A stretch of 64,000 nt of DNA from Patescibacteria group bacterium (GTDB lineage Bacteria; Patescibacteriota; Minisyncoccia; Phycocordibacterales; PALSA-1337). The stretch covers positions 128,041 through 192,040 of the forward strand of contig JBBTYL010000003.1 in assembly GCA_038061795.1 (NCBI GenBank). Direction: 5' to 3'. Of this stretch, positions 4,726 through 60,142 are shown piece by piece. How positions within the stretch are numbered: the first letter of the stretch is position 1; the number at the start of each line of letters is the position of its first letter. A program made the translations under genes and the position numbers. The notes under the pieces are model-generated. The model was not told the origin of the DNA and searched no databases. It saw only the letters and a program-made list of their open reading frames with translations.

Positions 4726-6405
4726 TTAAAGCGTCTCCTGATCTGGCACAACGACATTCGACTTCCAGAACTTATGATGGAGAGTAGCCCAAACCTCCTT
4801 TATTTCCCTGTTCTTGAGTATTACAAGCACGATGATCCCCGCGATTATGCCTACGATGCCCGCGCAGAAACCCTGAAGAAACACTCCCCACGCCTTGTCG
4901 AGCGTAAAGAAAAGATTGAAGAAACGGAGAGAAAGGAATGTCACATAACCCATGATGATAGAAGCGCAGAAACTCTGGAAAAGCGCCGCGATGACCGGCT
5001 TGGTGAAGCCAGGATAATCCTTCTCGAAAATATGCCAATGAAGATAGGTATTGAAGATGATTCCGATCGAATATGCCAGAGGAAGCACAAGAACGCTAGT
5101 TCCCATCTGTCCAGAAACCTTGAGCAAGTCCTGAAGAAAAAAAGCAAACATCGGAAAAGCGAAAAAGGCCTTCGTAAATCCATAACCGAGTCCGGCGATG
5201 ACAAGCCCGGAAATGATGTTTATGATAAGTGGCTTCCGCGTCTTCCCTTCAGCATAATATGCGCGAACGAAAAGAAGAATGAGGCTCTGGCCGATGACAG
5301 AAACGATGAAAATTGCGAGCGTGGCGGCCGTGAGGCGCGTGTCGGCCCAATCGAACTTTCCAGCACCGTAGATGGTTCGGACGATTTGCGCGCGAAGCAC
5401 TATGAAGAGCACCATGATTGGGATCGACCAAAAGACAATGTGGCGGGCAGAATCAATCATCTGGCCAAGGAATTCGGTGCGGTTCTTTTCAACAAAAAAT
5501 TTAGACAGTGTCGGGAATACAGCGGAAGAATAACTGACGCCGATGATGGAAAGCGGTACGGATTGGAGATTGAGCGCGAGATTGAAGATGGAGATTGATC
5601 CGCCGCTCATGAGAGAGGCAAGAGCGATCAGGAAAAAGGAGGCAAGCTGATTGGCGGAAAGCGTCAGCGTCCTCGGCAGGGAAATCATTACCACCTTCCT
5701 GATGTCATTCCAATCGATGCGGAAATTGAAGCTAGGGAAGGTTTCCTTGTGCATGATGAAAGGAATCTGTATCGTCATATGCAAGAGCGCGCCTATCACG
5801 ACGCCCCAGATCAGGCCATGCAATCCTAGGAAAGGATATAGGAATATGATGCCGAAGATTATGCCGGCATTGTATACGACCGGACTAAGCGCATATACGA
5901 GGAATCGGCGGTGCATCTGCGTGATGCTTGAAAGGAAATTTGAGAGGCCTAGGAAGATCGGGGAAAGAAGAAGTATCCTCGTCGCCGAAATGAGTTCCGG
6001 CAAGGACGGATCATTGACGAATCCAGGTATAAGGATCTGTATGAGCCAAGGTATCAGGAAATAAGCGATGATGCTCACGGCGATGATCGCAAGAAAGAAA
6101 GCAGAGAAGATGCTGTCGATGAATTTCCTTCCCTTATCGGAATCTTTATGGAACCGATCGATGAAGAACGGCACTAGCACGGAAGCAGACACTACCGAGG
6201 CGACAGAAACGAATATCAGATCAGGAATCCTGAATGCGGAATAATAAACGTCGAGCATATGACCAGCTCCGAAGCTGTAAGCAAGAAGCTTGTCACGGAC
6301 AAGCCCAAGCACCTGCGACATGACCGCAAAGAATGCGAGAAGATACGCAGCTTCATGAAGGCCGCGTATCTCTTTGCCCATCATCTCGAAAAACTTTTTT
6401 ACCAT
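4726..6405 (-). CDS. murJ: lipid II flippase MurJ (MviN family)
   Basis: 559 aa, about 14 TM helices, with the N-terminus LGLVRDKLLAYSFGAG typical of MurJ/MOP exporters. Its ATG overlaps the upstream stop (TAATG). Confidence 0.88.
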   Translation of the reverse strand: MVKKFFEMMGKEIRGLHEAAYLLAFFAVMSQVLGLVRDKLLAYSFGAGHMLDVYYSAFRIPDLIFVSVASVVSASVLVPFFIDRFHKDSDKGRKFIDSIFSAFFLAIIAVSIIAYFLIPWLIQILIPGFVNDPSLPELISATRILLLSPIFLGLSNFLSSITQMHRRFLVYALSPVVYNAGIIFGIIFLYPFLGLHGLIWGVVIGALLHMTIQIPFIMHKETFPSFNFRIDWNDIRKVVMISLPRTLTLSANQLASFFLIALASLMSGGSISIFNLALNLQSVPLSIIGVSYSSAVFPTLSKFFVEKNRTEFLGQMIDSARHIVFWSIPIMVLFIVLRAQIVRTIYGAGKFDWADTRLTAATLAIFIVSVIGQSLILLFVRAYYAEGKTRKPLIINIISGLVIAGLGYGFTKAFFAFPMFAFFLQDLLKVSGQMGTSVLVLPLAYSIGIIFNTYLHWHIFEKDYPGFTKPVIAALFQSFCASIIMGYVTFLSLRFFNLFFTLDKAWGVFLQGFCAGIVGIIAGIIVLVILKNREIKEVWATLHHKFWKSNVVVPDQETL

Positions 6406-8816
6406 TATTTTTTAGCCGGACTTTCCTTCACTGGAAGACTGCTTCTCTTTTCCGGCTTGCTGTCAGTTGGAGGCTGTGCGTCTGCAAACGGCGACTTGCC
6501 GGCCTTTAGGTTGGAAAGGATCAGGGAGACTTCTTCGCTGTCAGGGTTGGTTTGCGCGAGAATTTCAAATTGGCTTATGGCATCTGCTGTCTTGCCGAGA
6601 CGAGCGTATGAAAGGCCTAGGAAGTATTGGGCATTTGCGTACTGATTGTTAAGCTCAGTCGCCTTGCTGAAGGCATTGACTGCCTCCTGATAAGCCTTGT
6701 CATTGTAGTAAAGCAAGCCGAGCTGGAAAAATACGAGGGGATTCGTGGGGTTGATTTGGCTTGCGACCTGGACAGATGTTATGGCCTCCTTTATCTGGCC
6801 CTGGCTCACTTGTATCTGAGAAAGAAGGAAGATTGCCTCGATGTAATTCTGCTTGAGCTGAAGGGCGGCGCCCACGAACTGCTGAGCCTCAGCAAACTTG
6901 TTCTGAGAAGCTTCTATGCGGGCAAGATTGAGATAGAGCGCTGGATTGTAAGGATTATGCTTCAGGGCATTCAAGTATGCCGTCTTCGTATTTTCATAGG
7001 CATTTTCAATCTTAAGAGAAAGGGCCACTTCGGAGATGCGGGCCTCGGCAACGTAGTTATAATAATTCGTCGGATCAAAAGCTGTTGCGCTCCTGGTATA
7101 TCCAACTGCCTCCTCTACAAGCTTCCCAATCTGTGCAATCAGCGCTGAATCAGGAGTCTTTGCGCCTTGTTGGGCTTGCAGCTGGAGCTGTTGCGACAAC
7201 GCCGTAATTTTCAGGATATCGACTTCAGAAAGCGCTTGGTAATAAATGTCGTTCTCATCCCACGAAATCGCTTTGCCGAAGTTCTTTTCTGCAGTCTCTA
7301 TTCCCTGATTCTGTGGGAGATTGAGAGCGCTGATTCCACTCTGGAAATAACCGATAGCAACCATTTTCTTGAGGTAAGCGAAAGCCCAAACGACGCAAAC
7401 GACGAGCGCGGCTGCAATGATGATCTGGATGATTTTTTTGAAACGAGAGCTTTCCGAAGATCCTGTTCCCACAAGCTGGACTTGGCCCTCTGCAACAAGC
7501 GATGAGATGAAAAGGCCGGTCATCACGAAGGTAAGCAGCATGATCGAATGCGAAGGCACGGAGACAAAGCATGCGATCCATAGGAAAATCGACGTGAAGA
7601 ATGTCGAACCGACGAAGAAACGTGAAAAATTGTCATTTGTCTTTCTGAGTCCGCTGAAGCCCGCAAACGCAAGCATGATGATGAATATGCACCAGAGAAG
7701 AAAACCTACGATTCCTTGGGTCGCAAGAGAGGACATTATGACGCCAGAACCGTTGCTGAACTCAACGCTCCAAAGATTATCCGCATTGATTCCAGCCGGT
7801 TTGAATTTGAGATATTGTGAAGCGAACCTGTTAGGTCCTGCCCCGAAAAGCGGGGATTCCTTGAGGGTATCGGATGCGACATCGAGAGTCAGCTGCCATG
7901 GCAATGCCACCTCGCTTGGTTCAAGCTTGAGCGCTTCTATGACCGGGCGAGCAAGCGTATCCCCTTTCCACGCACAAGCGAGAGCGATGATAAGTATGAT
8001 GAGTGATAAGACGGGCAATCTTTTGATGATTCCCGCTTTTTCACCATTCTCATGAGCAGGGGCCAATGAATACTGATAGTACACCATTCCCGCTGCCACG
8101 AGAGCGACTGCGATCCAAATGACTGAAGAATTCACAATGAAAAGAAAGATTCCAGATACTACCAGAAGGGCAATCAGAAGGAATTTAAGAAACTTATTGA
8201 GCGTAATGAACTGAAGGCCGATATACGAGACTATTCCGACTATCCCAGCAAGAAGCGCAAGATCATCCCACCTTCCAATAAGCGATGACATGGTTGATTG
8301 GAAAAGCCCGAAAGTCAGGACCTCTGGTCCTACCAAAAATCTGACAGCATGAAAAAGAGCCAAGATTATGAAGGAAACGATGATGCCACCATATATGTAA
8401 AGCACCCGATCCTTTTCCTTGTGAGTAAGGTACACCGTAAGAAGCGACGCGAGGAATAGGACGAGAAACAAGCTGCCAGTACCAAGCTCGAATCCCTGGC
8501 CGAAAAAGGATTTTGAGATATTAGTGCTCAAAAGCGTCGAGATAATAATAGAAGCGATGATTCCGCCAGCGACAAAGACAAGCGGGTGTTTCGGAATCGA
8601 GAGATTCTTTTGCTTGAATGCCGATATGAAATAGAGAATTCCTGAAGTGAGAACTCCGAAGACAATCACTGCGGTCTTTGACATATCAAGCAACGCATGT
8701 GAGGTCGGTAAAAATGCCAAGGGGGCAAGGATTATGGTTATGAGAAAAACAATGAAAGATATTTTTTCAAGCCCGCCTTTAGGAGACGGAGAAATCTCTG
8801 TTGGTGTTGTATCCAT
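6405..8816 (-). CDS. O-antigen ligase-like polytopic membrane protein with C-terminal TPR domain
   Basis: 803 aa. The N-terminal ~480 aa are polytopic (Wzy_C/O-antigen-ligase-like). The C-terminal ~300 aa are TPR repeats (for example NALKHNPYNPALYLNLARIE and AVNAFSKATELNNQYANAQYFLGLSYARLGK). Confidence 0.72.
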   Translation of the reverse strand: MDTTPTEISPSPKGGLEKISFIVFLITIILAPLAFLPTSHALLDMSKTAVIVFGVLTSGILYFISAFKQKNLSIPKHPLVFVAGGIIASIIISTLLSTNISKSFFGQGFELGTGSLFLVLFLASLLTVYLTHKEKDRVLYIYGGIIVSFIILALFHAVRFLVGPEVLTFGLFQSTMSSLIGRWDDLALLAGIVGIVSYIGLQFITLNKFLKFLLIALLVVSGIFLFIVNSSVIWIAVALVAAGMVYYQYSLAPAHENGEKAGIIKRLPVLSLIILIIALACAWKGDTLARPVIEALKLEPSEVALPWQLTLDVASDTLKESPLFGAGPNRFASQYLKFKPAGINADNLWSVEFSNGSGVIMSSLATQGIVGFLLWCIFIIMLAFAGFSGLRKTNDNFSRFFVGSTFFTSIFLWIACFVSVPSHSIMLLTFVMTGLFISSLVAEGQVQLVGTGSSESSRFKKIIQIIIAAALVVCVVWAFAYLKKMVAIGYFQSGISALNLPQNQGIETAEKNFGKAISWDENDIYYQALSEVDILKITALSQQLQLQAQQGAKTPDSALIAQIGKLVEEAVGYTRSATAFDPTNYYNYVAEARISEVALSLKIENAYENTKTAYLNALKHNPYNPALYLNLARIEASQNKFAEAQQFVGAALQLKQNYIEAIFLLSQIQVSQGQIKEAITSVQVASQINPTNPLVFFQLGLLYYNDKAYQEAVNAFSKATELNNQYANAQYFLGLSYARLGKTADAISQFEILAQTNPDSEEVSLILSNLKAGKSPFADAQPPTDSKPEKRSSLPVKESPAKK

Positions 8817-8884: not shown

Positions 8885-8912
8885 AAAAAACTCCCTGTTA
8901 AGGGAGTTTTTT
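8885..8912 (-). terminator. rho-independent terminator downstream of rnpB
   Basis: AAAAAACTCCCT-GTTA-AGGGAGTTTTTT hairpin, with a U-run on the minus-strand transcript. Confidence 0.7.
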
Positions 8913-8918
8913 GATGTG

Positions 8919-9236
8919 ACATATCGATAAGCCGAGTTCTGTATCTGCAATCCGCTTTTGACGGCGACTGCAGACGACAATCATTTATCTGGGAGATGGA
9001 TTGCTCCATCCCTCAAGCGGCACTCCGGCGAAGCATTGCTGCGACTCCGGCACGGCCTTGCACTGGGGTAAGGATTTTGCCGTTTCACTCCCACTAAAGG
9101 GATTCGTCACTGTTCTCACCTCGCGTCTCGCGACGGACGGGCGTTACCCGCTACCTTGCTGCTCTGTTTACACATAGCCAGTGCTCGGACTTTCCTCTAT
9201 TGGCACTTTCGCGCCAACAGCGACTGTCTGATATGT
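8919..9236 (-). ncRNA. rnpB: RNase P RNA (bacterial type), compact ~318 nt
   Basis: The minus-strand RNA contains the conserved blocks GAGGAAAGUCCGAGC (CR-I), GGGUAACGCCC, GAGUGAAACGGC, CAGAUAAAUGAUUGUC and ACAGAACUCGGCUUAU. The terminal P1 pairing is ACAUAUC...GAUAUGU. Confidence 0.9.
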
Positions 9237-9290
9237 AAGCGTATTATACCACAATTAAAAAATGTGCGCAAGAACCAGTATGCGGCTTAG

Positions 9291-13599: not shown

Positions 13600-14052
13600 T
13601 CATTTATTCCTATGGAACGGGTGCAGATGGGCAGCAACGCCCATCGCGAGAGCGACGATTACGAGATTCTTGATGATATACTGCCCCTCGAGAGTCGGGA
13701 CAAGAATGCTCTGCCATGTCATGGCTGGTAAAAAGATGAGCGGAAGCGTCGTCATGACCATGTGCGGGATAAGCAGCGCTATAGCGAAGCGTGCGAGGCG
13801 AGGAATAAGGAATGATATTCCTATAAGCATTTCATAGATAGCGAAAATGATGATGAACGTCCCCCACTCCATAAATGGCAAAGTTGCTTCCATGAGATCC
13901 ATGACCATCGGACCTGCTGGACTCAATCCGAGGATTTTCAATATGCCGAACCAGAAGAAGACAATGAAAAGCGCGACACGAGCGGCAGGCATGCTTAATT
14001 TTCTCAAGAGGTGTATGAACCAGCTGTCGAATTGTTCAAAGTAGCGCCTCAT
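13600..14052 (-). CDS. DoxX/YkgB-like small integral membrane protein
   Basis: 150 aa with 4 predicted TM helices. The family assignment is by general resemblance only. Confidence 0.45.
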   Translation of the reverse strand: MRRYFEQFDSWFIHLLRKLSMPAARVALFIVFFWFGILKILGLSPAGPMVMDLMEATLPFMEWGTFIIIFAIYEMLIGISFLIPRLARFAIALLIPHMVMTTLPLIFLPAMTWQSILVPTLEGQYIIKNLVIVALAMGVAAHLHPFHRNK

Positions 14053-14089
14053 GTGGATATGCTAATAGTATATATGATATCATACGGAC

Positions 14090-14623
14090 ATGAAAATCGC
14101 TTTTGTAGGGCCGGCCGCAGTCGGAAAGGATGTGGCATCGGATTATATTGCAAAAAAATTCAATTTGGCGCATATCCCTACTGGCGATATCGTCCGAGAA
14201 TACATGACGAAAAATAATTTGGGTGAGCTTGATCGAGCCAATGTGAGGATCATTGCAAAAAAGATGCGCGACGAGCAGGGCGGCGATATTTTCGTCAGAA
14301 TTGCCCTTAAAGACAATCCTGACGATGTCGTGCTTAGCGGATTGAGAGCGGTGGATGAGATTTATACGCTCAAGAAGCTTGGCGGAAAAGTGATTGCTCT
14401 CGACGCTCCAACAGAAAAGAGGTTCGAATGGGCGAAAATCAGGGGTAGAATCGGTGACCATATATCATTTGAGGAATTCAAGGCAATCGAAAAAAAAGAA
14501 TATGAGAATAAGGACAAGAATGGCCAGAATGTGGCCCGCGTCATGGCTTTGGCGGACTTTCAAGTAATGAATGATTCTGATCTAGAGAGCCTGTTCAAAA
14601 AACTAGACACTTTGAATCTTTAG
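14090..14623 (+). CDS. P-loop nucleotide kinase, UPF0200-like (dephospho-CoA-kinase-like family mostly seen in archaea)
   Basis: Walker A GPAAVGKD, then GDIVRE, GLRAVDEI, RFEWAKIRGRIGD and ALADFQVMND, which track the UPF0200 pattern. An extended -10 TGATATCAT lies 6 nt upstream of the ATG. Confidence 0.6.
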   Translation: MKIAFVGPAAVGKDVASDYIAKKFNLAHIPTGDIVREYMTKNNLGELDRANVRIIAKKMRDEQGGDIFVRIALKDNPDDVVLSGLRAVDEIYTLKKLGGKVIALDAPTEKRFEWAKIRGRIGDHISFEEFKAIEKKEYENKDKNGQNVARVMALADFQVMNDSDLESLFKKLDTLNL

Positions 14624-14624
14624 C

Positions 14625-17600
14625 TTATTCCGAAGAAGTTTCTTCCACTACCTCGGTCGTCGTTTCAGTAGGCGTCTCTTCAATACCTTCTTCTGTTGCC
14701 GGTTCCTCAACGGGTTCTTCTTCAACAACATCAATTTCTTCTATATTATTGTCTTCCACCGGCGTAGTCTGTTCCGATACCTCCTGAGTACTAGAAGCAA
14801 CACTATCATCTGCAGTACCCGCCTCAGTTTCATGTTCTGTATCTGTCTCACCAACATCATCTGTTGAAGTCGAAACGGTTGTTGATGATTCTGGTATTGT
14901 GGTTGGCGTAGAGGTAGAAACTATATCATCATGAATAGTGTCCTGTTCGTCAGATTCCTCCGTCTCATCATCTGATACAGATTCCTGGTGAACGGTACCA
15001 CCGGCATCTAGAAGTAGAGCCTTAAATTGATCCTTGGTCACGCACACATCATCGACACAAATATCATTCTGAACATTGAATGTCCCGTCAACGAACCAAG
15101 CAAGTACTTTATTGATTTTTGCCACTAGCTCCTTCACCGCCTTGACCAAGATGGAAATGATGGCACGGTCATCGATACCAGAAAGGTCTCCGTCTGCATT
15201 GTAAGTGACGAGACGAGCGTCGATACCTTCTACTTCATCGGCAATGAAACCGTATCGAAGTCGCTGGTCTCCATCATTGTAGACAAATGATGTCGGCATG
15301 AGACCGTTGACGACTGACAGGGCGTCTAGAGACAAAGTTTCGATGTCGTGCTTGGTCTCGCGGAGAGATGGGAGACATGCGTCAGAACCAGAGTTGTATA
15401 CTAGTTCGTTGTTCGAGGAGAGACAGACTGATCCTGCTCCGGTGGAGCCGGTGAGGCCATCGAATCCAGCCGTGCCAGTAACTGAAAACTTGCGCCACGG
15501 CGATGTAGTACCAACACCGACATTTCCCCCTCCATTGAAGATGGCGTCGTAGTTGTTGGTGCCTCCGGTCACTGAGGATATGTACAGGCCTATGTTGTTA
15601 GCCGATGTTCCAGACCATGAGCCGGTGGAGACGATCTCTATGCCAGACTTGTTGATGAAAGACGTGGTTGATGTGGCGGTATTTGATACCTTGATGCCAC
15701 TGAAGGCTGAAGTTTTGACATCGGAGTCAGCTGGCAGTGAAATGTCCAGGATATGAGACGGAGTAATGTCATTGATGCCTATGAGTCCTAGGCCAGAGAT
15801 GAAAAGACGCGACAGTGAGGCTGATCCAGAGTTGGTCTCGAAGCTTATGGGGCGGTAGACTGCATTCCCTGAGGTGCTCGTGAACTTCGCTCCACCGTTC
15901 GATCCTGTGGCGCTGATGTTGAAGGAAGATTGGCCAGTCTTGGTTATGAGGAGAGACGGGTCGCTTGTGTTGCTTATCTGTATGTCCTTAGCGAAGGTGC
16001 TAGCTACGGTTGTAGATGTAGCAGTGAACGAACCTGCCAGAGCGTTCGTGCCTAGGTCGGAAGACCCGTTGACTGACAATGCTCTCCAGGGGGAGGTGGT
16101 GCCGATACCGATGTTGCCGGCGACTGGGACGCTTGAGACAGAAGCACCATTATAAACACCAGTACCATATATGAGATTACCGATATTTAATTGTTGGCTA
16201 CCGGTTACAGAAGGTGCTTCTATGTTTTGGCCAATGACGATATTGTAGCCTCCTGTGGTTATTCCATATCCAGCCTGATAGCCGAGAAGTGTGTTGTAAT
16301 TACTACCAGTACTTGCACTATATCCTGCTTGATAGCCAGCATATACGCCTCCTTGATTAGAATATGGTGTCACTCCACCCGACCCAGCGTTATATCCGAT
16401 TGCCACAGTATTAGTCGCGGAAGTGTTGTACGCGAGCGCATACATACCAACCGCTGAATTGTATGACCCAGTCTTATTGCTTCCAAGTGCCCAATGTCCA
16501 ATAGCAGAGTTGCGCGATCCAGTCGTATTTTCATAATTGGAATAATATCCGACCGACGAATTGTAATTACCTGAACTGTTCCTATATAGGCTTGAGTGAC
16601 CGATTCCGGTATTTTGTGTGCCAGTCGTACTGTACAACGATGCATAACCAAGCCCAGTATTACCGACACCGCTAACATTGAGTTGCAATGACTGTGCTCC
16701 GACGGCGGTATTATGAGTTCCTGTCTGCAATGTAGATGCCGCCCCATGTCCTATCGCCGTATTGTATCCACCAGTAGTTAGTGCCCTCAATGAATCAAAT
16801 CCTGTACCAACATTGTATGATCCAGATGCAGCAATATTCCAGCTGGGATTACCGACAAATAGATTTGATAGGGTTGTCGTACCAAACACATATCCAGCAT
16901 CGATTATATCCTTCGTAGCCAGATTGCTTATCGGCTTATCAATCGATGGAGCAAGCGAATCAATCAAAGTGGCTAGTCCTCTAGCTATGACATCATACCC
17001 AGTCGAATTTAGATGGAGTGTATCGTATCGTAGCGATGTCGGTGGTGTTCCGGCGCTACAGTTTGTCTGATCCGCCGTAGTTGACGCATACCATCCTGTA
17101 GTATTCGATGGTCCAATTGGATTACAAGTGGATAACAGCCATTCCATCGTATCAAAATAATTATCACCGTAAGTAGATGACAAAGTACTATTGATTGAAG
17201 CGATGTTGTCATATGTTCCAGTTCCTGAGCCTTCAGTTAGGCCAGTAATCACACCCATGACTATAAAGTACCTTGGTTGCGTCATGAGTGAGACCATCGA
17301 AGCAATGTTCGCTATCACTGTCGCTGGCGAACTATTGTCATTACGGCCAGACCATATGACCTCAAAATCATTCTGCCTGTTGGTAGCTTTCACGAATCTT
17401 GCAAGTATATTAGTGCTTGACTCTCCACCAACACCGCCATTGAATGTAATATATTCCCTGCTCGTGTAATTGTTTATCGTGTATGTCCACGGATTTCCGC
17501 CACTACCGCTCGTCAAACTGTCTCCCCACGCCGATATCCTAAACGACGACGATACGCTCGATGATGTAGCATACTGTGCATAAAGATTTCCGGAAACAGT

Positions 17601-18524
17601 AAGATTTGTCGTCGATGCATTCGTAAACATCTGCAACCCGGTAAACGTATTAGCGGAATACAGCTTCGGTATAGTCGTCGAAGCATTGATGTAGCTGTTC
17701 ACTCTAGCATCAGTGTAATAGAGGTTCGAACCTTCAGAGACATTGGTAGTGAGGAGACCGAGAGAGGAGGTGGAAATGCCAGAGAGAGTCGTGCCGTTTG
17801 CAGCATAGTAGGCGAGCTGGTTGGCAGTGCCGCTATTGATGGTGCCAGAACCACCAGCACTGATACCCAACGATGATGTAGCCACCAGGTCATAGCCTCC
17901 CAGAGCATTGCCGAGGAGGACTTCACCGTAGGCTGGAGCAGTAGATGTACCTGTACCACCGTTGCTGATTGCTAGATCTGTACCAGACCAGTTGGAGTCA
18001 TTGACTGACGAAGCAGTAGCTAGAGTACCTAGACCAGATATGCTAGAGGTATCTAGGTCATCTACGGAATTGCCAATACTGGTGAATACACGATCAGTCT
18101 GTATAGATGACTTGGTCTTGAAGGCTTCGAGCTCGGAGCGGAGGGATGATATGAGGGAGAGGAGGTAGTCTGCTGAAGCTTCTGGGGGATTGGGTGTTGC
18201 CTGTTCCCTGATGATGGTCTCGACTATCCTGACTGGAGCTGAAGTCTGAGGGTTGAAATCGGATACGGGAACCAAGGGAGCTTCAGGAGCAGGGCTAGCT
18301 ATGACAATATCCTCCTTGCACATGTCAGTGCTAAGGGACAGGAGCGAGGTCAGAGAACAGACGAACCCCTTCCAGCCGTCTGAAGCAGAGGCAGTCTGCC
18401 ATCCCCATGCAGTGGAAAAGGCGTAGGAGCTCTGGGGTGGCATGCTGCTGAAGACCACAGCCAAGAAAAGCGCCGCCACAAGCATTGCTCCAGCCCTGCG
18501 GAGCCGTTTTTTCAGGAAATCCAT
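14625..18524 (-). CDS. giant secreted surface protein: tail-fibre-like N-region, SGNH/GDSL hydrolase, YadA-head-like repeats, peptidase S74 intramolecular-chaperone domain, acidic tail
   Basis: 1299 aa. The signal peptide ends in SSYA. A GDSL block AWGDSLTSG (~17515-17535) and a DTLHLN catalytic-His block (~17010-17030) mark the hydrolase. NTAIGxxA/NSAVG repeats span ~16180-16790. S74 signature SLRETKHDIETL...YGFIADEV (~15090-15380). The D/E/T-rich tail is at 14628-15000. Confidence 0.85.
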   Translation of the reverse strand: MDFLKKRLRRAGAMLVAALFLAVVFSSMPPQSSYAFSTAWGWQTASASDGWKGFVCSLTSLLSLSTDMCKEDIVIASPAPEAPLVPVSDFNPQTSAPVRIVETIIREQATPNPPEASADYLLSLISSLRSELEAFKTKSSIQTDRVFTSIGNSVDDLDTSSISGLGTLATASSVNDSNWSGTDLAISNGGTGTSTAPAYGEVLLGNALGGYDLVATSSLGISAGGSGTINSGTANQLAYYAANGTTLSGISTSSLGLLTTNVSEGSNLYYTDARVNSYINASTTIPKLYSANTFTGLQMFTNASTTNLTVSGNLYAQYATSSSVSSSFRISAWGDSLTSGSGGNPWTYTINNYTSREYITFNGGVGGESSTNILARFVKATNRQNDFEVIWSGRNDNSSPATVIANIASMVSLMTQPRYFIVMGVITGLTEGSGTGTYDNIASINSTLSSTYGDNYFDTMEWLLSTCNPIGPSNTTGWYASTTADQTNCSAGTPPTSLRYDTLHLNSTGYDVIARGLATLIDSLAPSIDKPISNLATKDIIDAGYVFGTTTLSNLFVGNPSWNIAASGSYNVGTGFDSLRALTTGGYNTAIGHGAASTLQTGTHNTAVGAQSLQLNVSGVGNTGLGYASLYSTTGTQNTGIGHSSLYRNSSGNYNSSVGYYSNYENTTGSRNSAIGHWALGSNKTGSYNSAVGMYALAYNTSATNTVAIGYNAGSGGVTPYSNQGGVYAGYQAGYSASTGSNYNTLLGYQAGYGITTGGYNIVIGQNIEAPSVTGSQQLNIGNLIYGTGVYNGASVSSVPVAGNIGIGTTSPWRALSVNGSSDLGTNALAGSFTATSTTVASTFAKDIQISNTSDPSLLITKTGQSSFNISATGSNGGAKFTSTSGNAVYRPISFETNSGSASLSRLFISGLGLIGINDITPSHILDISLPADSDVKTSAFSGIKVSNTATSTTSFINKSGIEIVSTGSWSGTSANNIGLYISSVTGGTNNYDAIFNGGGNVGVGTTSPWRKFSVTGTAGFDGLTGSTGAGSVCLSSNNELVYNSGSDACLPSLRETKHDIETLSLDALSVVNGLMPTSFVYNDGDQRLRYGFIADEVEGIDARLVTYNADGDLSGIDDRAIISILVKAVKELVAKINKVLAWFVDGTFNVQNDICVDDVCVTKDQFKALLLDAGGTVHQESVSDDETEESDEQDTIHDDIVSTSTPTTIPESSTTVSTSTDDVGETDTEHETEAGTADDSVASSTQEVSEQTTPVEDNNIEEIDVVEEEPVEEPATEEGIEETPTETTTEVVEETSSE

Positions 18525-33395: not shown

Positions 33396-36300
33396 TTAGT
33401 ATTCGTAAGCTCCCACATCCCATACTCCATCCGCTCCACGAGTAGCTCCCACTGGATCCTTCTCGAAGGTAGTGACTGGACCAAGGACTGTAGTCACGTT
33501 CGGAACGGACACTCCAGCTATCGGAGCCGCAAGCTTGAATGTTCCTGATGCGAACGGATTGCTTGATGCAGTCACGTTATTGCTTGAGTTGGTTGGAAGA
33601 TATCCTATGCCTCCGCCCGCAACATTGTAGACTAAGTTGTTCCTAACTACGCTGTCAGATGACCAGAACACCGTGGTATCACCGCGCGTGATGGCTGCCC
33701 ACGCGTTGGTTATGGTGTTGTTATAGACATAGAACGGACCATGGGTGACATTTCCTGAGTATGAACGAAGCTCTAAGAATCGATGCGTGCTTCCGTTCTT
33801 TCCTCCATATCCGTCATGGAAGACGTTGCCGTAGACATACCAGTTCCTGCTCGTGCTTCCCCATGGGTACAATCCTTCAACCTGCCAGTTGTATACGTCG
33901 TTATTCCTGAAGACAATACCGTTGCTTCCATTAACGATCATGAGATTTCCGTGCCAAGTAGCTGAGTTTGCGGCACCGTTGTCGTAAACCTTATTGTTCT
34001 CGATAAGAACATTGTTTGCACCAGCGAACCAGAATTCATTTGGATGGCCGCGGACTCGGCTATTTCGCACGGTAATATTGTTAGTGCTATGGCTTGGATA
34101 TCCGTAACCGATATTTACTCCGCTATTATCTCCATTGAATGTTGCGAGCGCGCTGCCTATAGATGTTCCTTCGAGGCTGTTTGCCGCGCTTGGACCGACG
34201 AGGTCGACATGGTCAACAGTGACATAATGTCCGTTCGTAGCGTCGTATGATGATGGCACTCCGCTACTATTTGAAGAGATAAATCTCATACCCATATCAA
34301 CTCTTCCATCGATATACACATATGATACTGGTGTTGACAATGAGCCGAATGTGGCTCGCGAATCAAGAGCCGCGATCCATCCGGATCCTGTCGCTACAGA
34401 ATCGCTCGAAAGGATTCGCTTGATGTATATAAGATTTGCAGCAGTACCGCTCTTTCCTACATTCAAGCCAGAATAGCTACCTCCCGCAACCCAAATCGTA
34501 TCACCTGGTTGGATACTGCTCCAGACGATATTGTTTGTATTCTTCCATGCGCTTGACCATGATGTACCGTTTCCTGAAGTTCCAACTGAGGCATTTAGAT
34601 ACCAGTTATTGCCAGTGCCTGTAGGCTCAGCATTAAACGTCGCTGTAACTGTTCCTGCTGAAGTCAATGCACATGAGTTGACTGTACATGAACCTGCTGA
34701 TGTAGGAGATGCTGTCAGACCAGCAAGAGTTGAACCTGAAGCAGCTGTTGCTGAAACAAGAACTGTTGATCCTGAATTCGTACTGCATGATGCAGGGCTG
34801 CATGTAACCGTTCCTGAACCAGTTCCTGCCTTTGCCGTAGTGACAGTAAAGGTTGTTGTTGGATCGGACACGATGACATTGAATGCCGCATTGACTGTCG
34901 TATTTGAATTGAGTGTAAATGAACATGACTGAGATGTTCCTGTACATGCTCCTGACCAGCCAGCGAATGAATGAGTATAGACTGAGCCTCCAGAAGTAGT
35001 CTGTGGGGCAGGTGTCGCTGTCAAAATAATAGTCTGTCCCACATTTCCACTTGCTGCACATGAGGTACCGCAATTTATTGAAGATGAGGTAACTGTTCCA
35101 GATCCAGCACCTGACTTCGTAATAGTATACGAAGCTTGCACTGGAGGCGTATATGCATCAAGACCATCTTGACCTACCCATCCGTCAACTCCAGAGTTGA
35201 AATCAATATTCCACCATTGATATGACGTACCACTTAATGTCGCTGTAACTGGACCTGCTACAGTGGTTCCAGGCACAGCTGTTGATTGTGTATCAAGAAG
35301 CGTTCCTGCGGCTGTCTGACGGACATTTACTATTGCATTCGGTATGACTGATTGAGGAATTGTGAACTTCGCTGCTACAAGAGTGATTGTGACTGAAGCG
35401 CTTCGTGAAAGCGAGACATTGCCTGCTAGGTCCTTCGCCCACGCATAGAGTGTCTTCGATCCTGCTGTTGCAAAAGTATAAGACGTTGGTGCTGAGAGGG
35501 TCCAACCAGAAACAGTTGCGGAAGGGGCTGTTGCTGATTCAGTAATCAAATAACCTGTCACACCAAAATTATCACTCGCGACAACCGAAGTCGTCACTGT
35601 AAGTGAAGATGAGGTAGAAGGAATTGTGAATGCAGTAACTGTAGGCTTTGTAGTATCGTTTGTTACAGGAATCGTGTTGAACGTCGCCGTAACTGTTCCA
35701 GCCGAAGTGAGCGTACATGCTCCTGTTCCAGTACATGCTCCTGACCAGCCTACGAAGGTCGAGCCTGAAGCTGGAACTGCTGTAACTGATACTGTTGAAC
35801 CTATGTTTGCAGTACATGATGTTGGAGCACATGTGACTGTTCCTGAGCCATTGCCAGCCTTTGCCGTAGTGACAGTGAAGGTAACTGGGTTAACAATGAC
35901 AGCTGTAAATGTGGCTGTGACCGTTCCAGCCGAAGTTACCGTACAAGCTCCTGTTCCCATACATGCTCCCGACCATCCTGTGAATGTTGAGCCTGATGCT
36001 GGTGTTGCAGTTACAGATACTGATGAACCTACAGAAGCGCTACATGAACTTGGGCTACATGAAACCGTTCCTGAGCCAGTTCCTGCCTTTGCCGTAGTGA
36101 CAGTAAAGGTTGTCGCTGCTGAATAAAGCTTCAAAGTTCCCTGTCCAGAATAGCCGTCAACCGTAGTTCCATCGTAATCAATTTTCCACCAATAGAAACC
36201 GTCTGTAGGATTTTGAATTCCACCTCCTACTATTGTTCCGATAGAACCAAGCGCTCTAGTTCCAACTAAAGTTCCACTTAATGAGGCAATCGTTCGGACA

Positions 36301-38183
36301 TTAGTCTGTTCATTCGTCTGGATTCGATCGCCAACTTTGAAATTAGTAGAAAGTACTGCTGGCTTTATATTTTCTTCACCGACATATCCATCAACACCTG
36401 TCTCAAAATCAAGTTTCCACCAGAAATGTCCATCGGTTGAATTTTTTATACCTTCAGGAGCATCTGGATCATCAACAACAGTTGCAGGTGATCCTGTATA
36501 TTGAGTACCATCAAGCCTTGAAGACAGCGCAGCCAAACGTCGAACATTTGAAACGTTTACAGTCTGAACTTTGTCACCAATCCTGAATTTTGAAGAAGTG
36601 ACTACTTGAGCTGGCGCGACCGAAATAGTTACTGAAGAAATCGTCGATACTCCGCCAAGCCCAGTACAATAAATCGTATACATCGTGCTTGTTTGGATTT
36701 CTGTTATTGTAGTCACGGTCTGTGATCCTGAAACCGCCTTCGTACCGGCAAACGATCCGCCAGAACCAGTACATGACGTAGCGTCAGTCGATGATGTCCA
36801 GGACAACGTTGACGGCTGGCCTGAAGCGACAGAGGTAGGGTTTGCAGAAAGTGAGACCGTAGGAGCGTTTGGAAGCGTCTTCACTTGAACAGCGGCGGAT
36901 TGATCAGAGGCATTTCCAGCCGCATCGACTGCTACGACCGTATATGAATATGGCGTATTCGGACCAGCCCCTGAGTCAGAGTAGCTGGTATTTGTCACAT
37001 CGCTGATCTTTGATCCGTTTCGATAGACCTTGTATCCTGTCACGCCGATATTGTCTGTTGATGCTGACCAAGAGATTCGAGCGCCTGTCTTGGTGATGTC
37101 TGAAGCTGTAACACCAGAAGGTATGGATGGCTTTGTCGTATCTGTCGCAGACTTTGTCGTAAACTTAGAATTTGAAGAAGATGCCTTGTTTCCTGCAGTA
37201 TCAACAGAGGTGACGCTAAAATTGTATTCGGTACCGGACGCCAAGCCAGTGATCGTTGCCGAATGTGAGGTTACTTTGCTCGTATTGAGGCCTGTGTTGC
37301 TTGTATATGAAGATGTGAATCCGTATTCTACAAAGCTGTCTGAAGCCTCATTCGTCGTCCATGTCACTGTTGCCTGGCTTTCTGTTATATTTGACACATT
37401 TACGCTTGAGATGGAAGGAGCGGTAGTATCTGAAGGAGACGATGTTTCCCCCGTGTATGTGTAAAGGGCTGTCACATCAGAAGCAGAAAGAGCCTTATTG
37501 TAAATCCTAAAATCATCCACTAAGCTCTTTGCGAAGAAGGATCCGGTGTTTCCATAGTGTCCGATATGCACCTGATCAAAAAAGTCTCCAGGGGAATTGG
37601 CATTCTTGCTTACGATTCGTGTGCCGTCAAGGTAAATTTTGACATTATTGGAAGCATCGTAGCTCATCACGACATGATGCCATTTACCATCATTTACTAT
37701 TTTTCCAGTACCAGTTGAGTAGAATTGGTCGGTGTATTCCCAAGAGAGTTTGCCTCCTTCTATGTAAAGGGTCGGTGCTCGTTGCGCACCTGAACCGCCG
37801 TAGCTACCAGTGAGAGTTCCATCGCCAGTCGGCTTGAACCAGAACGAGACCGTTCCGGCAGATGTTTGATATACCTGGCTATCGATAAAAACGTAGTTTG
37901 TTCCATCGAATGAGACAGAGCCGTTTCCAATCTTTCCTGATGAAAAGCTCGAAGATCCAGACCATGAGCCGTCGTTTCCGCTGCCAGAGGCATCGGCGAG
38001 AGAAGAATCATCGAACGGAAGGTGTGCGACAAGTCCTGAAGGAAGAGCTGCGGATACCTGTGCCTGCTGGCTATCGAGGATATTGTCTGCAACCTGCTGT
38101 TGGTTGAGGGAGAGCGAACCGATATACACTCCTGTAAGGACGATGATGCCGACAAGCAAGGAACCTAATAGTTTGGGATTCAT
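33396..38183 (-). CDS. giant secreted surface protein: LamG, 3x Fn3, SH3-like modules, 4x InlB-B-repeat-like modules, Ig-like domain, C-terminal right-handed beta-helix
   Basis: 1595 aa with an N-terminal anchor. The LamG_3 region (~37465-38050) ends in VDDFRIYNKALS. The Fn3 modules start with DTTAPSISS and DTTKPSIPSG. FTVTTAKAGxGSGTVxC modules carry GWSGAC. The C-terminal ~400 aa show a parallel beta-helix pattern (NNITVRNSRVRG, VLIENNKVYDNG, IVFRNNDVYN). Confidence 0.85.
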   Translation of the reverse strand: MNPKLLGSLLVGIIVLTGVYIGSLSLNQQQVADNILDSQQAQVSAALPSGLVAHLPFDDSSLADASGSGNDGSWSGSSSFSSGKIGNGSVSFDGTNYVFIDSQVYQTSAGTVSFWFKPTGDGTLTGSYGGSGAQRAPTLYIEGGKLSWEYTDQFYSTGTGKIVNDGKWHHVVMSYDASNNVKIYLDGTRIVSKNANSPGDFFDQVHIGHYGNTGSFFAKSLVDDFRIYNKALSASDVTALYTYTGETSSPSDTTAPSISSVNVSNITESQATVTWTTNEASDSFVEYGFTSSYTSNTGLNTSKVTSHSATITGLASGTEYNFSVTSVDTAGNKASSSNSKFTTKSATDTTKPSIPSGVTASDITKTGARISWSASTDNIGVTGYKVYRNGSKISDVTNTSYSDSGAGPNTPYSYTVVAVDAAGNASDQSAAVQVKTLPNAPTVSLSANPTSVASGQPSTLSWTSSTDATSCTGSGGSFAGTKAVSGSQTVTTITEIQTSTMYTIYCTGLGGVSTISSVTISVAPAQVVTSSKFRIGDKVQTVNVSNVRRLAALSSRLDGTQYTGSPATVVDDPDAPEGIKNSTDGHFWWKLDFETGVDGYVGEENIKPAVLSTNFKVGDRIQTNEQTNVRTIASLSGTLVGTRALGSIGTIVGGGIQNPTDGFYWWKIDYDGTTVDGYSGQGTLKLYSAATTFTVTTAKAGTGSGTVSCSPSSCSASVGSSVSVTATPASGSTFTGWSGACMGTGACTVTSAGTVTATFTAVIVNPVTFTVTTAKAGNGSGTVTCAPTSCTANIGSTVSVTAVPASGSTFVGWSGACTGTGACTLTSAGTVTATFNTIPVTNDTTKPTVTAFTIPSTSSSLTVTTSVVASDNFGVTGYLITESATAPSATVSGWTLSAPTSYTFATAGSKTLYAWAKDLAGNVSLSRSASVTITLVAAKFTIPQSVIPNAIVNVRQTAAGTLLDTQSTAVPGTTVAGPVTATLSGTSYQWWNIDFNSGVDGWVGQDGLDAYTPPVQASYTITKSGAGSGTVTSSSINCGTSCAASGNVGQTIILTATPAPQTTSGGSVYTHSFAGWSGACTGTSQSCSFTLNSNTTVNAAFNVIVSDPTTTFTVTTAKAGTGSGTVTCSPASCSTNSGSTVLVSATAASGSTLAGLTASPTSAGSCTVNSCALTSAGTVTATFNAEPTGTGNNWYLNASVGTSGNGTSWSSAWKNTNNIVWSSIQPGDTIWVAGGSYSGLNVGKSGTAANLIYIKRILSSDSVATGSGWIAALDSRATFGSLSTPVSYVYIDGRVDMGMRFISSNSSGVPSSYDATNGHYVTVDHVDLVGPSAANSLEGTSIGSALATFNGDNSGVNIGYGYPSHSTNNITVRNSRVRGHPNEFWFAGANNVLIENNKVYDNGAANSATWHGNLMIVNGSNGIVFRNNDVYNWQVEGLYPWGSTSRNWYVYGNVFHDGYGGKNGSTHRFLELRSYSGNVTHGPFYVYNNTITNAWAAITRGDTTVFWSSDSVVRNNLVYNVAGGGIGYLPTNSSNNVTASSNPFASGTFKLAAPIAGVSVPNVTTVLGPVTTFEKDPVGATRGADGVWDVGAYEY
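34630..36112 (-). repeat. intragenic tandem or dispersed coding repeats (four ~75-aa B-repeat modules)
   Basis: DNA-level repeats, for example CCTGCCTTTGCCGTAGTGACAGTAAAGGT near 34824 and 36085 and a close variant near 35860. The modules diverge through mixed substitution types. Confidence 0.8.
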
Positions 38184-49607: not shown

Positions 49608-51899
49608 TTATTGCATCGCAGGAAGCTTCCCTTCCTGTATCTGTTTGATCACAGCATCAATCTGCGTCTTGAGAAGCGGGAATTTCTCCGCAGCAGCTTT
49701 CAAAGTCTGTATCGCCAAGTAATCCTGTTTGCTCAAGATATACACGGAGGCAAGGGAAGAATAGAGTTCTTGGCTATCCGGCGATTCCTTGAGGAGCTGT
49801 TTGTATATTTCAATGGCCTTGCCGAACTGCTTAGTCGAGACATACGCGTTAATGACGCCTGGATCAGCGAAGACCGATGGCTCATCGACGAATATCTCCC
49901 GGGCTCTCTTTTCTTCTCCAGATGAAATAAGGATGGCTGCGTAGCCGATCTTCGCATTCCTGTTATCGGGCGCTGACAGATACGCTTTCTCGATCAATGC
50001 GACAGCTTCTTTCTGCTTGTTGGAATTTATATAGTTAAGCGCAAGCTCGAAGAGAATGGTCTGCTTCGTCGGGGAAAGCTGCGCGGCTTTTTCGAGAAGC
50101 GGACGGGCATTGTCCCAATCCTGTATCGAATCATAGAATCCTCCAGCAATGATATGGGTTCTCGCGTCGTTCGGCGTAACTGCTATCTGATTCTTCGTCT
50201 CATCATTCACCAGCCTGTAGAATTCAGCCTTTTTGTCTACAGCTACACTGCTCCTTATGACATTTGCAGCACAAGTGTACATTTGTTCGCGGATTTCCTG
50301 ATTTGCCATTGTTTGGCCGAGCGATAGGGCTTTCTTGAATGAATCAGCAGAAATCGTCTGCGCGCTTGCGCAGGCTCTTAGAGCATCAATGAGACGCGTG
50401 TTCGCTTGGATCGGCCGGATATTCACAAGGTAAAGAGTCGAAAAAAGGGCGAGAATAATGACCGGGGTAAAGACATAATTCCGAAGCGTCGAGTAGTTTT
50501 CAGAGACAAGCTTCTTCGTATCGTGAAGCCATCCAGGAATCTTTGCCGACTTGAAAGAATGGACGAATGCAAGGAATGTAAAGAACATCACGTAGCTTGT
50601 TTGGTTATCGAAAACAAAGACATTGTGGATGCTATAGCCGACAAGCAACCCGGTCAGCATGGACTTCTGTCCAACACTCGTATCGCTCCTCCATATATAT
50701 ATGAGCGCGAGGACATAGAGAGCAAGATATGCGATAAGGCCAAGCAAGCCTCCGGCGACAAGCCAGTCGAGGAAGACGCTATGCGCGCGGTCGAACCATT
50801 GCTCGTGCGCCCACATCTTCGGATCATAGTGCGAATTGAAAATATAGTTGAAATTCTCTTGTCCGATGCCGATAATGGCTGTCTTTGGATTCTCAAAAAT
50901 TCCTTTTATTGCCATCGGCCAGATGAATCCTCGAGCCTGAGTCTTCGTGTCTGATAGAGATATTGTTGCGAGACGTCCGAGCACGGCGTTATGCTGTATC
51001 CACTGTGCATTTCTGTTGAAATAGAAAAGGATTCCAAGAAGCACAACGAGACCAATTATTCCTCCCGCGATTGTTCGAGAGCGATTTGATTGCCCTTTTT
51101 CCTTCGTGCCGATGACTGCATACATGAAGCAAAAAATCATCACTCCAGCAATCCATCCAAGGATGGTTCCTCGAGTCGCAGTCTGGAACATGATGAAGGA
51201 AAAGAAGCCTGCAGACACCGAATAGACCCAAATAAATACGTTGCTGCTGCCTTTTATAGCAAGCTTATGGACATACGCCGTGCACGCCATATATCCCGCG
51301 AGAAAAGCATTGATGAGCATGTACACCGCCATGTATGCGGAATTTCCAAGAGAAGCATCAACTCGAGTAGCACCCTGATGCGTTTCTGCCCAGCCAAAAA
51401 ACTGAAAGAGTCCGTAGAATGCCGTTATGCCTCCAGCGACGAGGGCGACATTAAGGAATCGGTGCCAATTTTTTCGTCCATCCATGGTTGAAATTGATGC
51501 GCCGAATATGCTTGAAAGAACAATGAAATATGCCCATAGATGAATAATCGTCATCCATCCTTCCATTCTCTCAAAGTTTGACCAGATACTTCTCAAAAAA
51601 TTGAGTCCAAAAATATCAGCAACGAAAATAATGACTGTAAAAATAGTGACGGAAATCGTCAATGAATTTATCCGCGGAGCGATGCTTGCATCCGTGCCAG
51701 CAACAGAAGTTCCCCTTTCCCGAAGGACGAGAATGAGCCAGAGGGCAAAAACGATCTCAACGATGATGCGGAATGCGAAGGCTTTTCCTGTTATAAAAGG
51801 AAAGAAGAGTGGGTTGGCGACATAGAGCGGGATGAACGGAACGAGTGCCAGACCAGCGATTACTGCATTCTTGAGTACTTTATTCATAGTGTTATTCAT
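49608..51899 (-). CDS. O-antigen ligase-like polytopic membrane protein with C-terminal TPR domain (paralogue-type of 6405-8816)
   Basis: 763 aa. The N-terminal ~470 aa are polytopic. The C-terminal part is TPR repeats (AVALIEKAYLSAPDNRNAKIGYAAILI, AIEIYKQLLKESPDSQELYSSLASVYI). Confidence 0.72.
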   Translation of the reverse strand: MNNTMNKVLKNAVIAGLALVPFIPLYVANPLFFPFITGKAFAFRIIVEIVFALWLILVLRERGTSVAGTDASIAPRINSLTISVTIFTVIIFVADIFGLNFLRSIWSNFERMEGWMTIIHLWAYFIVLSSIFGASISTMDGRKNWHRFLNVALVAGGITAFYGLFQFFGWAETHQGATRVDASLGNSAYMAVYMLINAFLAGYMACTAYVHKLAIKGSSNVFIWVYSVSAGFFSFIMFQTATRGTILGWIAGVMIFCFMYAVIGTKEKGQSNRSRTIAGGIIGLVVLLGILFYFNRNAQWIQHNAVLGRLATISLSDTKTQARGFIWPMAIKGIFENPKTAIIGIGQENFNYIFNSHYDPKMWAHEQWFDRAHSVFLDWLVAGGLLGLIAYLALYVLALIYIWRSDTSVGQKSMLTGLLVGYSIHNVFVFDNQTSYVMFFTFLAFVHSFKSAKIPGWLHDTKKLVSENYSTLRNYVFTPVIILALFSTLYLVNIRPIQANTRLIDALRACASAQTISADSFKKALSLGQTMANQEIREQMYTCAANVIRSSVAVDKKAEFYRLVNDETKNQIAVTPNDARTHIIAGGFYDSIQDWDNARPLLEKAAQLSPTKQTILFELALNYINSNKQKEAVALIEKAYLSAPDNRNAKIGYAAILISSGEEKRAREIFVDEPSVFADPGVINAYVSTKQFGKAIEIYKQLLKESPDSQELYSSLASVYILSKQDYLAIQTLKAAAEKFPLLKTQIDAVIKQIQEGKLPAMQ

Positions 51900-55050: not shown

Positions 55051-55052
55051 TC

Positions 55053-57890: not shown

Positions 57891-57891
57891 A

Positions 57892-58494: not shown

Positions 58495-58496
58495 TG

Positions 58497-60122: not shown

Positions 60123-60142
60123 GCGTTCAGTCTATCAATATA

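Follow-up and report, generated by a model that had tools for sequence, protein, structure and literature searches.

The 64,000-nucleotide stretch of Patescibacteria DNA analysed here (the window, to which all coordinates refer) carries at 14625..18524, on the minus strand, a single complete open reading frame (ORF) of 1299 codons plus the stop, which the end coordinate takes in. The ORF encodes a protein assembled from modules of the phage tail-fibre type, and this fibre gene and its product are the subject of the present report. It starts with ATG, four codons past an in-frame stop upstream. Reading the same interval on the plus strand gave a translation riddled with stops, and that reading was discarded. 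An identical protein is encoded on four independently assembled contigs, one of them from a Hainich groundwater sample, and the NCBI entry MEK7464009.1 lists it on another of the four, 256,750 bp long, as ‘tail fiber domain-containing protein [Patescibacteria group bacterium]’; given the four independent contigs and the NCBI entry, it is therefore no chance ORF. An earlier note, written from the letters of the DNA, had reported the 1299-residue ORF at this position with its strand unstated, and had guessed that the organism was an episymbiont. We confirmed the ORF, and the guess fits the NCBI source label and the groundwater origin of the sample.

The motifs quoted in the earlier note were each found at the place given for them: LAISNGGTGTST at residue 184, GDSLT at 334 (with Ser336), NGGVGG at 362, GRND at 393, DTLHLN at 501, NTAIG at 588, NSAVG at 689 and SLRETK at 1053 (Ser1053 and Lys1058, a spacing of +5). 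The gene and the parts of its product are distributed as follows.

14625..18524, minus strand: whole gene, 1299 residues plus stop, NCBI MEK7464009.1.
18420..18524, minus strand: residues 1-35, predicted Sec signal peptide (hydropathy and alignment with homologues P0001, P0002, P0003, P0005 and P0009).
18177..18419, minus strand: residues 36-116, lineage-specific N-terminal module (alignment and search of representative proteins).
17547..18176, minus strand: residues 117-326, helix and Gly/Ser/Thr-rich shaft (homologue comparison and model).
16935..17546, minus strand: residues 327-530, SGNH/GDSL esterase domain (Pfam, alignment and profile search).
16155..16823, minus strand: residues 568-790, 17-residue repeats and the closing QQLNIGNLIYG (autocorrelation, PHROG and tblastn).
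15369..16139, minus strand: residues 796-1052, MAT-type distal module (profile match to Bdellovibrio MAT tips).
15003..15368, minus strand: residues 1053-1174, peptidase-S74 chaperone domain (Pfam, profile and model).
14628..15002, minus strand: residues 1175-1299, acidic tail, predicted to be disordered (composition and homologues).

The fibre gene lies in ordinary cellular DNA of a Patescibacterium. It is flanked by genes for a methyltransferase, an MBL hydrolase, a nucleotide kinase-like protein, a DUF192 protein and NrdAB. The other window genes encode LepA, MurJ, two TPR/O-antigen-ligase-like proteins, TPM, LemA, GroEL/GroES, an oligopeptide-binding protein, RNase J, enolase, phosphoglycerate mutase, a two-component system, SecA, MurB and a polysaccharide-synthesis cluster, together with RNase P RNA (8912-9239) and four tRNAs. 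No capsid, terminase, portal, tail-tube or integrase gene was found within the 64 kb, and no paralogue of the fibre gene occurs in the window. The G+C content across the gene (0.47) is that of its surroundings. The homologues in other genomes are placed in the same way, and no phage structural, packaging or integration genes were found around them: P0002 and P0004 occupy a common housekeeping locus of the order RRM-LOG-TGT-[fibre]-PfkB-aldolase, and P0009, again among housekeeping genes, is paired in tandem with a second S74 protein.

The nearest characterised relatives of three of the modules are phage tail fibres and tailspikes, and the NCBI name itself is that of a tail fibre, as would be expected if the gene were an ordinary phage tail fibre carried by a prophage, a prophage remnant or contaminating phage DNA. 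We hold this to be extremely improbable: phage genes are absent from the 64 kb, the contig is 256,750 bp of Patescibacteria DNA with the gene at the G+C content of its surroundings, and the homologues elsewhere likewise sit between housekeeping genes. The protein also has a signal peptide and paired cysteines, described below, which are needless in virion proteins assembled in the cytoplasm. The prophage reading was rejected on genomic context, and the chromosomal location on which the earlier note had relied is borne out by window genes that are all housekeeping.

Downstream, an AAA_17/AAA_18 kinase-like ORF at 14090-14623 (+), the one annotated in the public assembly, runs tail to tail towards the fibre gene to within one base of the fibre stop codon, and therefore leaves no space for a separate terminator. 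It overlaps an ORF at 14036-14461 (-) that has no match and is probably spurious.

Searched as a single sequence against the sequences of the Protein Data Bank, the whole fibre protein gave no match at E<=1, and profiles were needed; a search of NCBIfam gave no meaningful match. With Pfam, Lipase_GDSL_2 (PF13472) was matched at residues 333-511 with an E of 6e-7, over profile positions 2-177 of 178, and the orthologous domains of P0002 and P0011 score 35.9 and 43.9 bits, above the Pfam cut-off. The conserved SGNH blocks are all in place: block I is G334-D335-S336, block II is G364, block III is G393-R-N395 and block V is D501-T-L-H504. In an alignment of 14 homologous sequences, W-G-D-S(336), G364, G393-x-N395 and D501-x-x-H504 are invariant. 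A profile made from the SGNH alignment and searched against solved structures found two ‘tail spike protein’ entries first, 9sij (7.8e-22) and 9sim (5.8e-21), with generic GDSL lipases and PAF acetylhydrolases at 1e-7 to about 3e-8. The chain lengths of the two entries (371 and 857) would fit the constructs gp20(734-1070) and gp20(248-1070) of phage epsilon15, whose gp20 SGNH ‘petal’ deacetylates O-antigen galactose. The PHROG tail-fibre family phrog_11419 matches the domain at 8e-29, and by tblastn phages of Rhodococcus, Stenotrophomonas and E. coli have it in their tail fibres. The SGNH hydrolase of the earlier note is thus upheld by catalytic residues that are invariant in 14 homologues, by two orthologous domains that pass the Pfam cut-off and by the match to a tailspike esterase.

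The arrangement resembles that of SGNH-bearing phage fibres such as the epsilon15 gp20 petal, G7C gp63.1 and the receptor-binding proteins of Klebsiella prophages, in which an SGNH domain with intact Ser, Gly, Asn and Asp-His blocks is mounted on a trimeric fibre. Those fibres are virion parts made in the cytoplasm, whereas the window protein is cellular and predicted to be exported. The epsilon15 petal also has a beta-barrel insert between blocks II and III that is absent from the window protein.

The superfamily to which the domain belongs includes lysophospholipases and thioesterases, several homologues are named ‘lysophospholipase L1-like esterase’ by the Joint Genome Institute, and PAF acetylhydrolase and GDSL lipases are among the SGNH profile matches (1e-7 to 1e-8). 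The fibre might then carry a lipase or phospholipase that hydrolyses membrane lipids or lipoproteins of a host to feed a lipid-auxotrophic bacterium, instead of deacetylating a glycan. Patescibacteria generally lack lipid synthesis. We nevertheless judge a lipase to be distinctly improbable: the E value of the tailspike esterase is some 13 orders of magnitude below that of the best lipase (7.8e-22 versus 3.4e-8), and the tailspike esterase has the family-specific ...PP-x-SLR-x-D-x-x-H motif in common with the fibre domain. Furthermore, the characterised SGNH domains of phage receptor-binding proteins are polysaccharide acetyl esterases. Deacetylation of a polysaccharide is accordingly the activity that we would expect of this domain.

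Beyond the esterase, residues 567-775 form about 12 tandem repeats with a strict period of 17 residues; the BLOSUM autocorrelation peaks only at lags of 17 and 34. The repeat consensus is G-x-x-N-T-A-I/V-G-x-x-A-L-x-x-N-T-T, and a conserved QQLNIGNLIYG closes the stretch. By tblastn, tail fibres of Pelagibacter, Roseobacter, Methylophilales and Prochlorococcus phages contain sequence about 35% identical to the repeats, and in PHROG the repeats match families of tailspikes and structural proteins. The earlier note had called them YadA-head-like. They do share with the heads of trimeric autotransporters (YadA_head) a superficial likeness, that of short repeats rich in Asn, Ser, Ala, Ile and Gly (N-T-A-I-G), but YadA-type adhesins have a period of 14 residues and an autotransporter anchor, and the fibre protein has a period of 17 and no such anchor. 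YadA_head (PF05658) gave no match at E<=1 in the fibre protein or in 11 relatives (12 aligned repeat regions), and the repeat profile had no match among solved structures, adhesins included. Because the repeats match neither YadA_head nor a solved adhesin, the comparison is a mere analogy and this part of the earlier description was dropped. The repeats probably form a beta-roll or beta-helix in a trimeric adhesin.

The next module, residues 796-1052, is bounded by two copies of G-I/V-G-T-T-S-P-W-R (residues 806-814 and 1003-1011), and no Pfam family covers it. We abandoned a joint alignment of residues 320-1180 in which 59 of 83 rows were misplaced in a MAFFT test; only residues 795-1180 passed the check, and the profile of that range was built from a checked alignment of 37 rows. 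This profile matched the crystallised fibre tips of Bdellovibrio bacteriovorus, with Bd2133 (8ond) at 1e-12 and Bd3182 (8ojn) at 2.3e-7, followed by the weaker matches Bd1334 (8oml) at 5e-4 and Bd2439 (8ol4) at 0.034. The homology spans residues ~840-1010, in the module ahead of S74. Foldseek searches with a model of the distal module returned Bdellovibrio tip entries again, weakly (E 0.02-0.06). From the profile matches we take residues 796-1052 to be homologous to the intertwined beta-helix tips of the MAT fibres.

The fibre-type module is followed by the chaperone domain, yet 125 residues come after it. Pfam Peptidase_S74 (PF13884) matches residues 1055-1105 at 29.2 bits, above its cut-off of 22. 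Ser1053, Lys1058, Gly1092 and Ala1095 are invariant in 27 of 27 homologues, and a GFIADEV motif is present. Against solved chaperone domains, the S74 profile matched the tail fibre 8jov (2.5e-14), 6f45 (7e-13), MyRF 7dc3 (8e-9), T5 pb1 8hqz (9e-8) and phi29 gp12 3gud (0.045). The model of this domain has a predicted local distance difference test score (pLDDT) of 86-96, and Foldseek placed the MyRF ICA domain 7dc3 first (5e-5, probability 1.0), with 3gud and 3gw6 also matched. The S74 domain with SLRETK proposed in the earlier note therefore holds, with a score above the Pfam cut-off, a Ser/Lys pair kept in all 27 homologues, and matches to the solved chaperones of phage fibres and of MyRF. 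Ser1053 is predicted to be the nucleophile at the scissile position and Lys1058 the base.

The phage chaperone domains of K1F endosialidase (3gw6), T5 pb1 (8hqz/4uw8) and phi29 gp12 (3gud) share with the fibre protein the Ser/Lys dyad at +5 and a GxIAQE-type motif, and they follow trimeric beta structure, as the domain would in the fibre protein by homology. In the phage proteins the S74 domain is the end of the chain; the window protein adds a CxDDxC motif and an acidic tail, with a conserved Cys pair ahead of the domain. MyRF, the source of the best structural match, is likewise a case of cellular, non-viral use of S74.

Two pairs of cysteines flank the domain. Cys1034 and Cys1050, just upstream of Ser1053 (window 15369-15440), are both present in 23 of the 27 homologues and both absent from the other four, and Cys1156 and Cys1161, in C-V-D-D-V-C-VTKDQF after the chaperone helices (window 15040-15059), are found in 16 of the 27. 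This pattern suggests disulfides formed outside the cytoplasm. Together with the signal peptide, Cys motifs that are kept or lost as pairs across the homologues point to extracytoplasmic folding.

The tail (residues 1175-1299) consists of 125 residues with a composition of E29 T25 S15 D13 V13 and no Lys or Arg, which bears out the acidic tail of about that length in the earlier note. The note had also called it unusual. This is true in comparison with phage S74 domains but not within the family, where most of 32 S74-bearing homologues have a tail of 40-280 residues after S74, rich in Asp/Glu, Ser/Thr or Pro and nearly free of Lys and Arg. The S74 proteins of a Bdellovibrio sp. and of a Bacteroidetes genome end 60-75 residues past the Pfam match. 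Since most of the 32 homologues carry it, the acidic tail is a trait of a mostly patescibacterial family, foreign to the phage and predator versions.

Three homologues (P0089, P0094 and P0108) have an N-terminal signal peptide and, right after S74, a C-terminal transmembrane helix with a basic end (for example WQWIAIGLLVVWNVRLTLRKK) in place of the acidic tail; in the window protein, S74 is not followed by a transmembrane segment. These three would have a MyRF-like topology in bacteria, in which self-cleavage would free the fibre from its membrane tether. We speculate that the acidic tail or the transmembrane end keeps the C-termini near the membrane, or soluble, until the trimer forms.

At the other end of the protein, residues 8-30 are its sole hydrophobic segment and follow a basic n-region, KKRLRR. 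A signal-peptidase-type site S-Y-A|F comes after it, conserved in relatives as A/T/S-x-A|F. Judged by rule, residues 1-35 fit a Sec signal peptide, in agreement with the signal peptide of the earlier note. Residues 36-116 begin with a stretch rich in Trp and contain a conserved loop, Cys56...Cys69, and a Pro-rich linker that varies. When residues 1-135 were searched exhaustively with HMMER against 1.84 billion representative proteins, only two relatives were returned, P0001 and P0002, both of them Patescibacteria-type proteins; the N-terminal module is therefore lineage-specific and not tied to any known anchor domain. We regard residues 36-116 as a candidate cell-proximal anchor to the bacterium’s own envelope. 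Residues 117-326 comprise a conserved helix, DYLLSLISSLRSELEAFKTKS, and a Gly/Ser/Thr-rich shaft with ISNGGTGTSTAP and SSLGLLTTNVSEGSNLYYTD. Of the 120 best homologues, 74 contain the shaft module again, often in several copies per protein; residues 130-326 have no solved relative and match PHROG tail proteins weakly. The helix has a pLDDT of ~80 in a model of residues 130-560 that was built on a misaligned alignment: MAFFT had smeared SGNH rows over the Gly/Ser/Thr shaft, the model had a pLDDT of 56, and it was not used as evidence.

The conserved signal-peptidase-type site, the predicted loss of the C-terminus by cleavage, and searches with Pfam, NCBIfam and hydropathy that found no sortase motif, lipobox, transmembrane anchor or known wall-binding domain in the fibre protein are what a freely secreted soluble trimer would show, acting as a diffusible glycan-modifying enzyme or a toxin-like factor and not attached to the cell. 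We give this little likelihood. The module right after the signal peptide is conserved and its linker variable, as in the cell-proximal N-domain of MAT fibres, and some homologues are C-terminally membrane-tethered before cleavage. Retention at the surface through the N-terminal module is the arrangement that we prefer.

Compared along their length, the homologues are mosaics, and even the best match covers only 39% of the query, at 66% identity. By BLASTP, P0001 and the fibre protein are 64% identical over residues 1-333 and 66% over residues 781-1293; by our estimate from the alignment, identity reaches ~95% over residues 117-318 and ~85% over residues 803-1180. In the centre of P0001, ~560 unrelated residues without Pfam annotation replace residues 320-800 (window 16125-17567), that is, the esterase and the repeats. 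Conserved cell-proximal and assembly ends around a swapped cassette resemble the pattern of phage receptor-binding proteins, and the same pattern has been termed ‘tip swapping’ for MAT fibres (PMC10769870). Since the distal half has relatives in Bacteroidota, Pseudomonadota and a Bdellovibrio sp. as well, cellular fibres with S74 are widespread, and Patescibacteria are not alone in having them.

S74 genes were also observed at the following two loci of other genomes. In another Patescibacteria genome (L003, 6001-14984), two tandem S74 fibre genes encoding 1354 and 1582 residues sit downstream of genes with weak matches to TrwB/DUF87 (conjugation-type ATPase). The chromosome of Bdellovibrio sp. 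HCB337 (L015, 18-8747) encodes a 2909-residue protein with S74 at its end, RHS-repeat and MG2 matches and an N-terminus without an obvious signal peptide; a gene for a 1420-residue LVIVD-repeat protein comes next.

The closest known counterpart of the window protein is the MAT superfamily of B. bacteriovorus, which comprises 21 signal-peptide-bearing fibres of ~1000 residues on the surface of the predator (Caulton et al. 2024, PMC10769870). Thirteen of the 21 end in S74, Bd3182 self-cleaves at the S74 serine, glycan binding was proven for one member, and a cell-proximal N-domain is part of the arrangement; the paper mentions neither esterases nor Patescibacteria (PMC10769870). Like MAT fibres such as Bd3182, the fibre protein is chromosomally encoded, bears a signal peptide, measures on the order of 1000 residues, is a mosaic of modules and belongs to a bacterium that lives on other bacteria. 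By sequence the two share a homologous beta-helix module ahead of S74, an S74 end with a Ser...Lys dyad, and a loop motif of the type G-x-G-T-x-x-P-x-x-x-L before S74, which the fibre protein has twice as GxGTTSPWRxL. The fibre protein differs in its phylum and envelope type, its apparently distinct, lineage-restricted N-terminal module, its in-line SGNH enzyme, its 17-residue repeats and the acidic tail of 125 residues behind S74. At the serine it has S-L-R-E-T-K, as opposed to S-D-x-x-x-K in MAT, and the N-terminal module, with its Cys loop, Pro-rich linker and helix, looks unlike the MAT N-domain.

We consider it probable, by analogy with these systems, that the product of the gene is a phage-tail-fibre-like protein which a Patescibacterium exports by the Sec route, a self-trimming trimer that deacetylates the polysaccharide of a host or neighbour. 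The homology to MAT prey-recognition fibres and to O-antigen-deacetylating tailspike esterases lends support to a trimeric fibre acting on a glycan of host or prey. After Sec export, the S74 domains (residues 1053-1174) of three chains would associate, set the register from the C-terminus and template trimeric folding. Ser1053, activated by Lys1058, would then cut the chain, leaving a mature fibre that ends at Pro1052 and releasing a fragment of 247 residues made up of the chaperone, the Cys motif and the acidic tail. From the cell outward, the mature fibre would consist of the N-terminal module, presumed to attach to the envelope, the helix and the Gly/Ser/Thr shaft, three SGNH domains (one per chain), the 17-residue repeat stretch of ~12 turns and the MAT-type beta-helix tip. 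The esterase domains would strip O-acetyl or similar acyl groups from the surface polysaccharide of a host or neighbour, as SGNH tailspikes do, and the repeat region and the tip would provide binding.

Several points weigh against this reading. The SGNH domain scores 30.5 bits against a curated Pfam cut-off of 32.9, falling 2.4 bits short, and for the three-layer alpha/beta/alpha fold of SGNH hydrolases, Foldseek with the misaligned model of residues 130-560 gave as its best match the SGNH esterase 3mil at an E of 0.22, which is not significant. The superfamily includes lipases as well as thioesterases, leaving the substrate class unfixed by sequence. The monomer model of the distal module has a low-confidence pLDDT of 50-60, as would be expected for an intertwined trimer, though such a value proves nothing. 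Trimerisation and self-cleavage are argued by analogy with K1F endosialidase, T5 pb1, MyRF and Bd3182. The conserved, beta-rich MAT N-domain of ~130 residues, which comes right behind the signal peptide, was not found by HMMER with residues 1-135 or at the N-terminus of one Bdellovibrio sp. S74 protein. With no envelope anchor detected, a protein with a cleaved signal peptide might simply be secreted. Finally, the present data point to no particular host.

The last of these points, the surface-polysaccharide synthesis genes and two O-antigen-ligase-like proteins encoded in the window, and the occurrence of relatives in Bacteroidota and Pseudomonadota that are not known as epibionts would also agree with a fibre that acts on its own envelope, a matrix or abiotic material, as a general adhesin or in remodelling of self-polysaccharide, and does not recognise another cell. 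We find this rather unlikely, given that another cell's surface is the target of MAT fibres and of every phage relative studied, and that a cassette swapped between near-identical ends is expected of a specificity determinant under diversifying pressure. Our preference thus stays with a fibre directed at a host or neighbouring cell.

Cellular S74 fibres have already been described (PMC10769870), and the enzyme-carrying version with an acidic tail is a new variant, not a new kind of system. Databases already label this family, which is abundant, and its domains all belong to known types. A search of the open-access literature found no work linking S74, tail-fibre-like or MAT proteins with Patescibacteria. 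On how ultrasmall Patescibacteria find and hold their hosts, published work points to type IV pili and unnamed adhesins. The fibre gene provides a concrete, testable candidate for host recognition in an epibiotic bacterium, and its product offers a case of an S74 chaperone acting after predicted Sec export, with an acidic tail and a membrane anchor as two alternative C-terminal appendages that may have a role in extracellular trimer assembly.

Beyond this gene, we put forward only tentatively a more general proposal: that Patescibacteria use phage-derived, enzyme-armed, MAT-like fibres for host recognition and to set host range, exchanging a central cassette, in this protein the SGNH esterase and the 17-residue repeats, between conserved ends for cell attachment (N-terminal) and assembly (C-terminal), much as phages trade receptor-binding modules; that S74 with an acidic tail or transmembrane anchor is an extracytoplasmic trimer-assembly device that is then cut off; and that glycan deacetylation is an early step in epibiont attachment. 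Confirmation of the fibre gene as a host-recognition tool would mean that one modular fibre toolkit serves three very different ‘parasites of bacteria’, namely phages, a predator and epibionts, and metagenomes could then be searched for the variable central cassettes as markers of host range.

Some other genes for surface proteins and polysaccharides were observed in the window and near the homologues. At 33396-38183 (-) lies a gene for a 1595-residue protein with LamG, fn3, purple-acid-phosphatase-N and InlB B-repeat domains, named ‘LamG-like jellyroll fold domain-containing protein’ in NCBI. A similar LamG/fn3 protein of 1600 residues is encoded three genes from the S74 fibre gene P0004 (locus L004), and LamG pseudopilin-like genes occur near P0002 and P0004. 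The surface-polysaccharide cluster at 52722-63885 contains a flippase-like gene, one GT2 and two GT4 genes, FkbM-type and other methyltransferases and a gene for an LPG_synthase_TM protein, along with two ORFs without a Pfam match (53971-55050 and 58497-60122). Its G+C content is lower, at 0.40-0.42 versus 0.46. Two large membrane proteins, encoded at 6405-8816 (-) and 49608-51899 (-), have TPR repeats at their C-termini, and the latter also has a Wzy_C (O-antigen ligase) domain.

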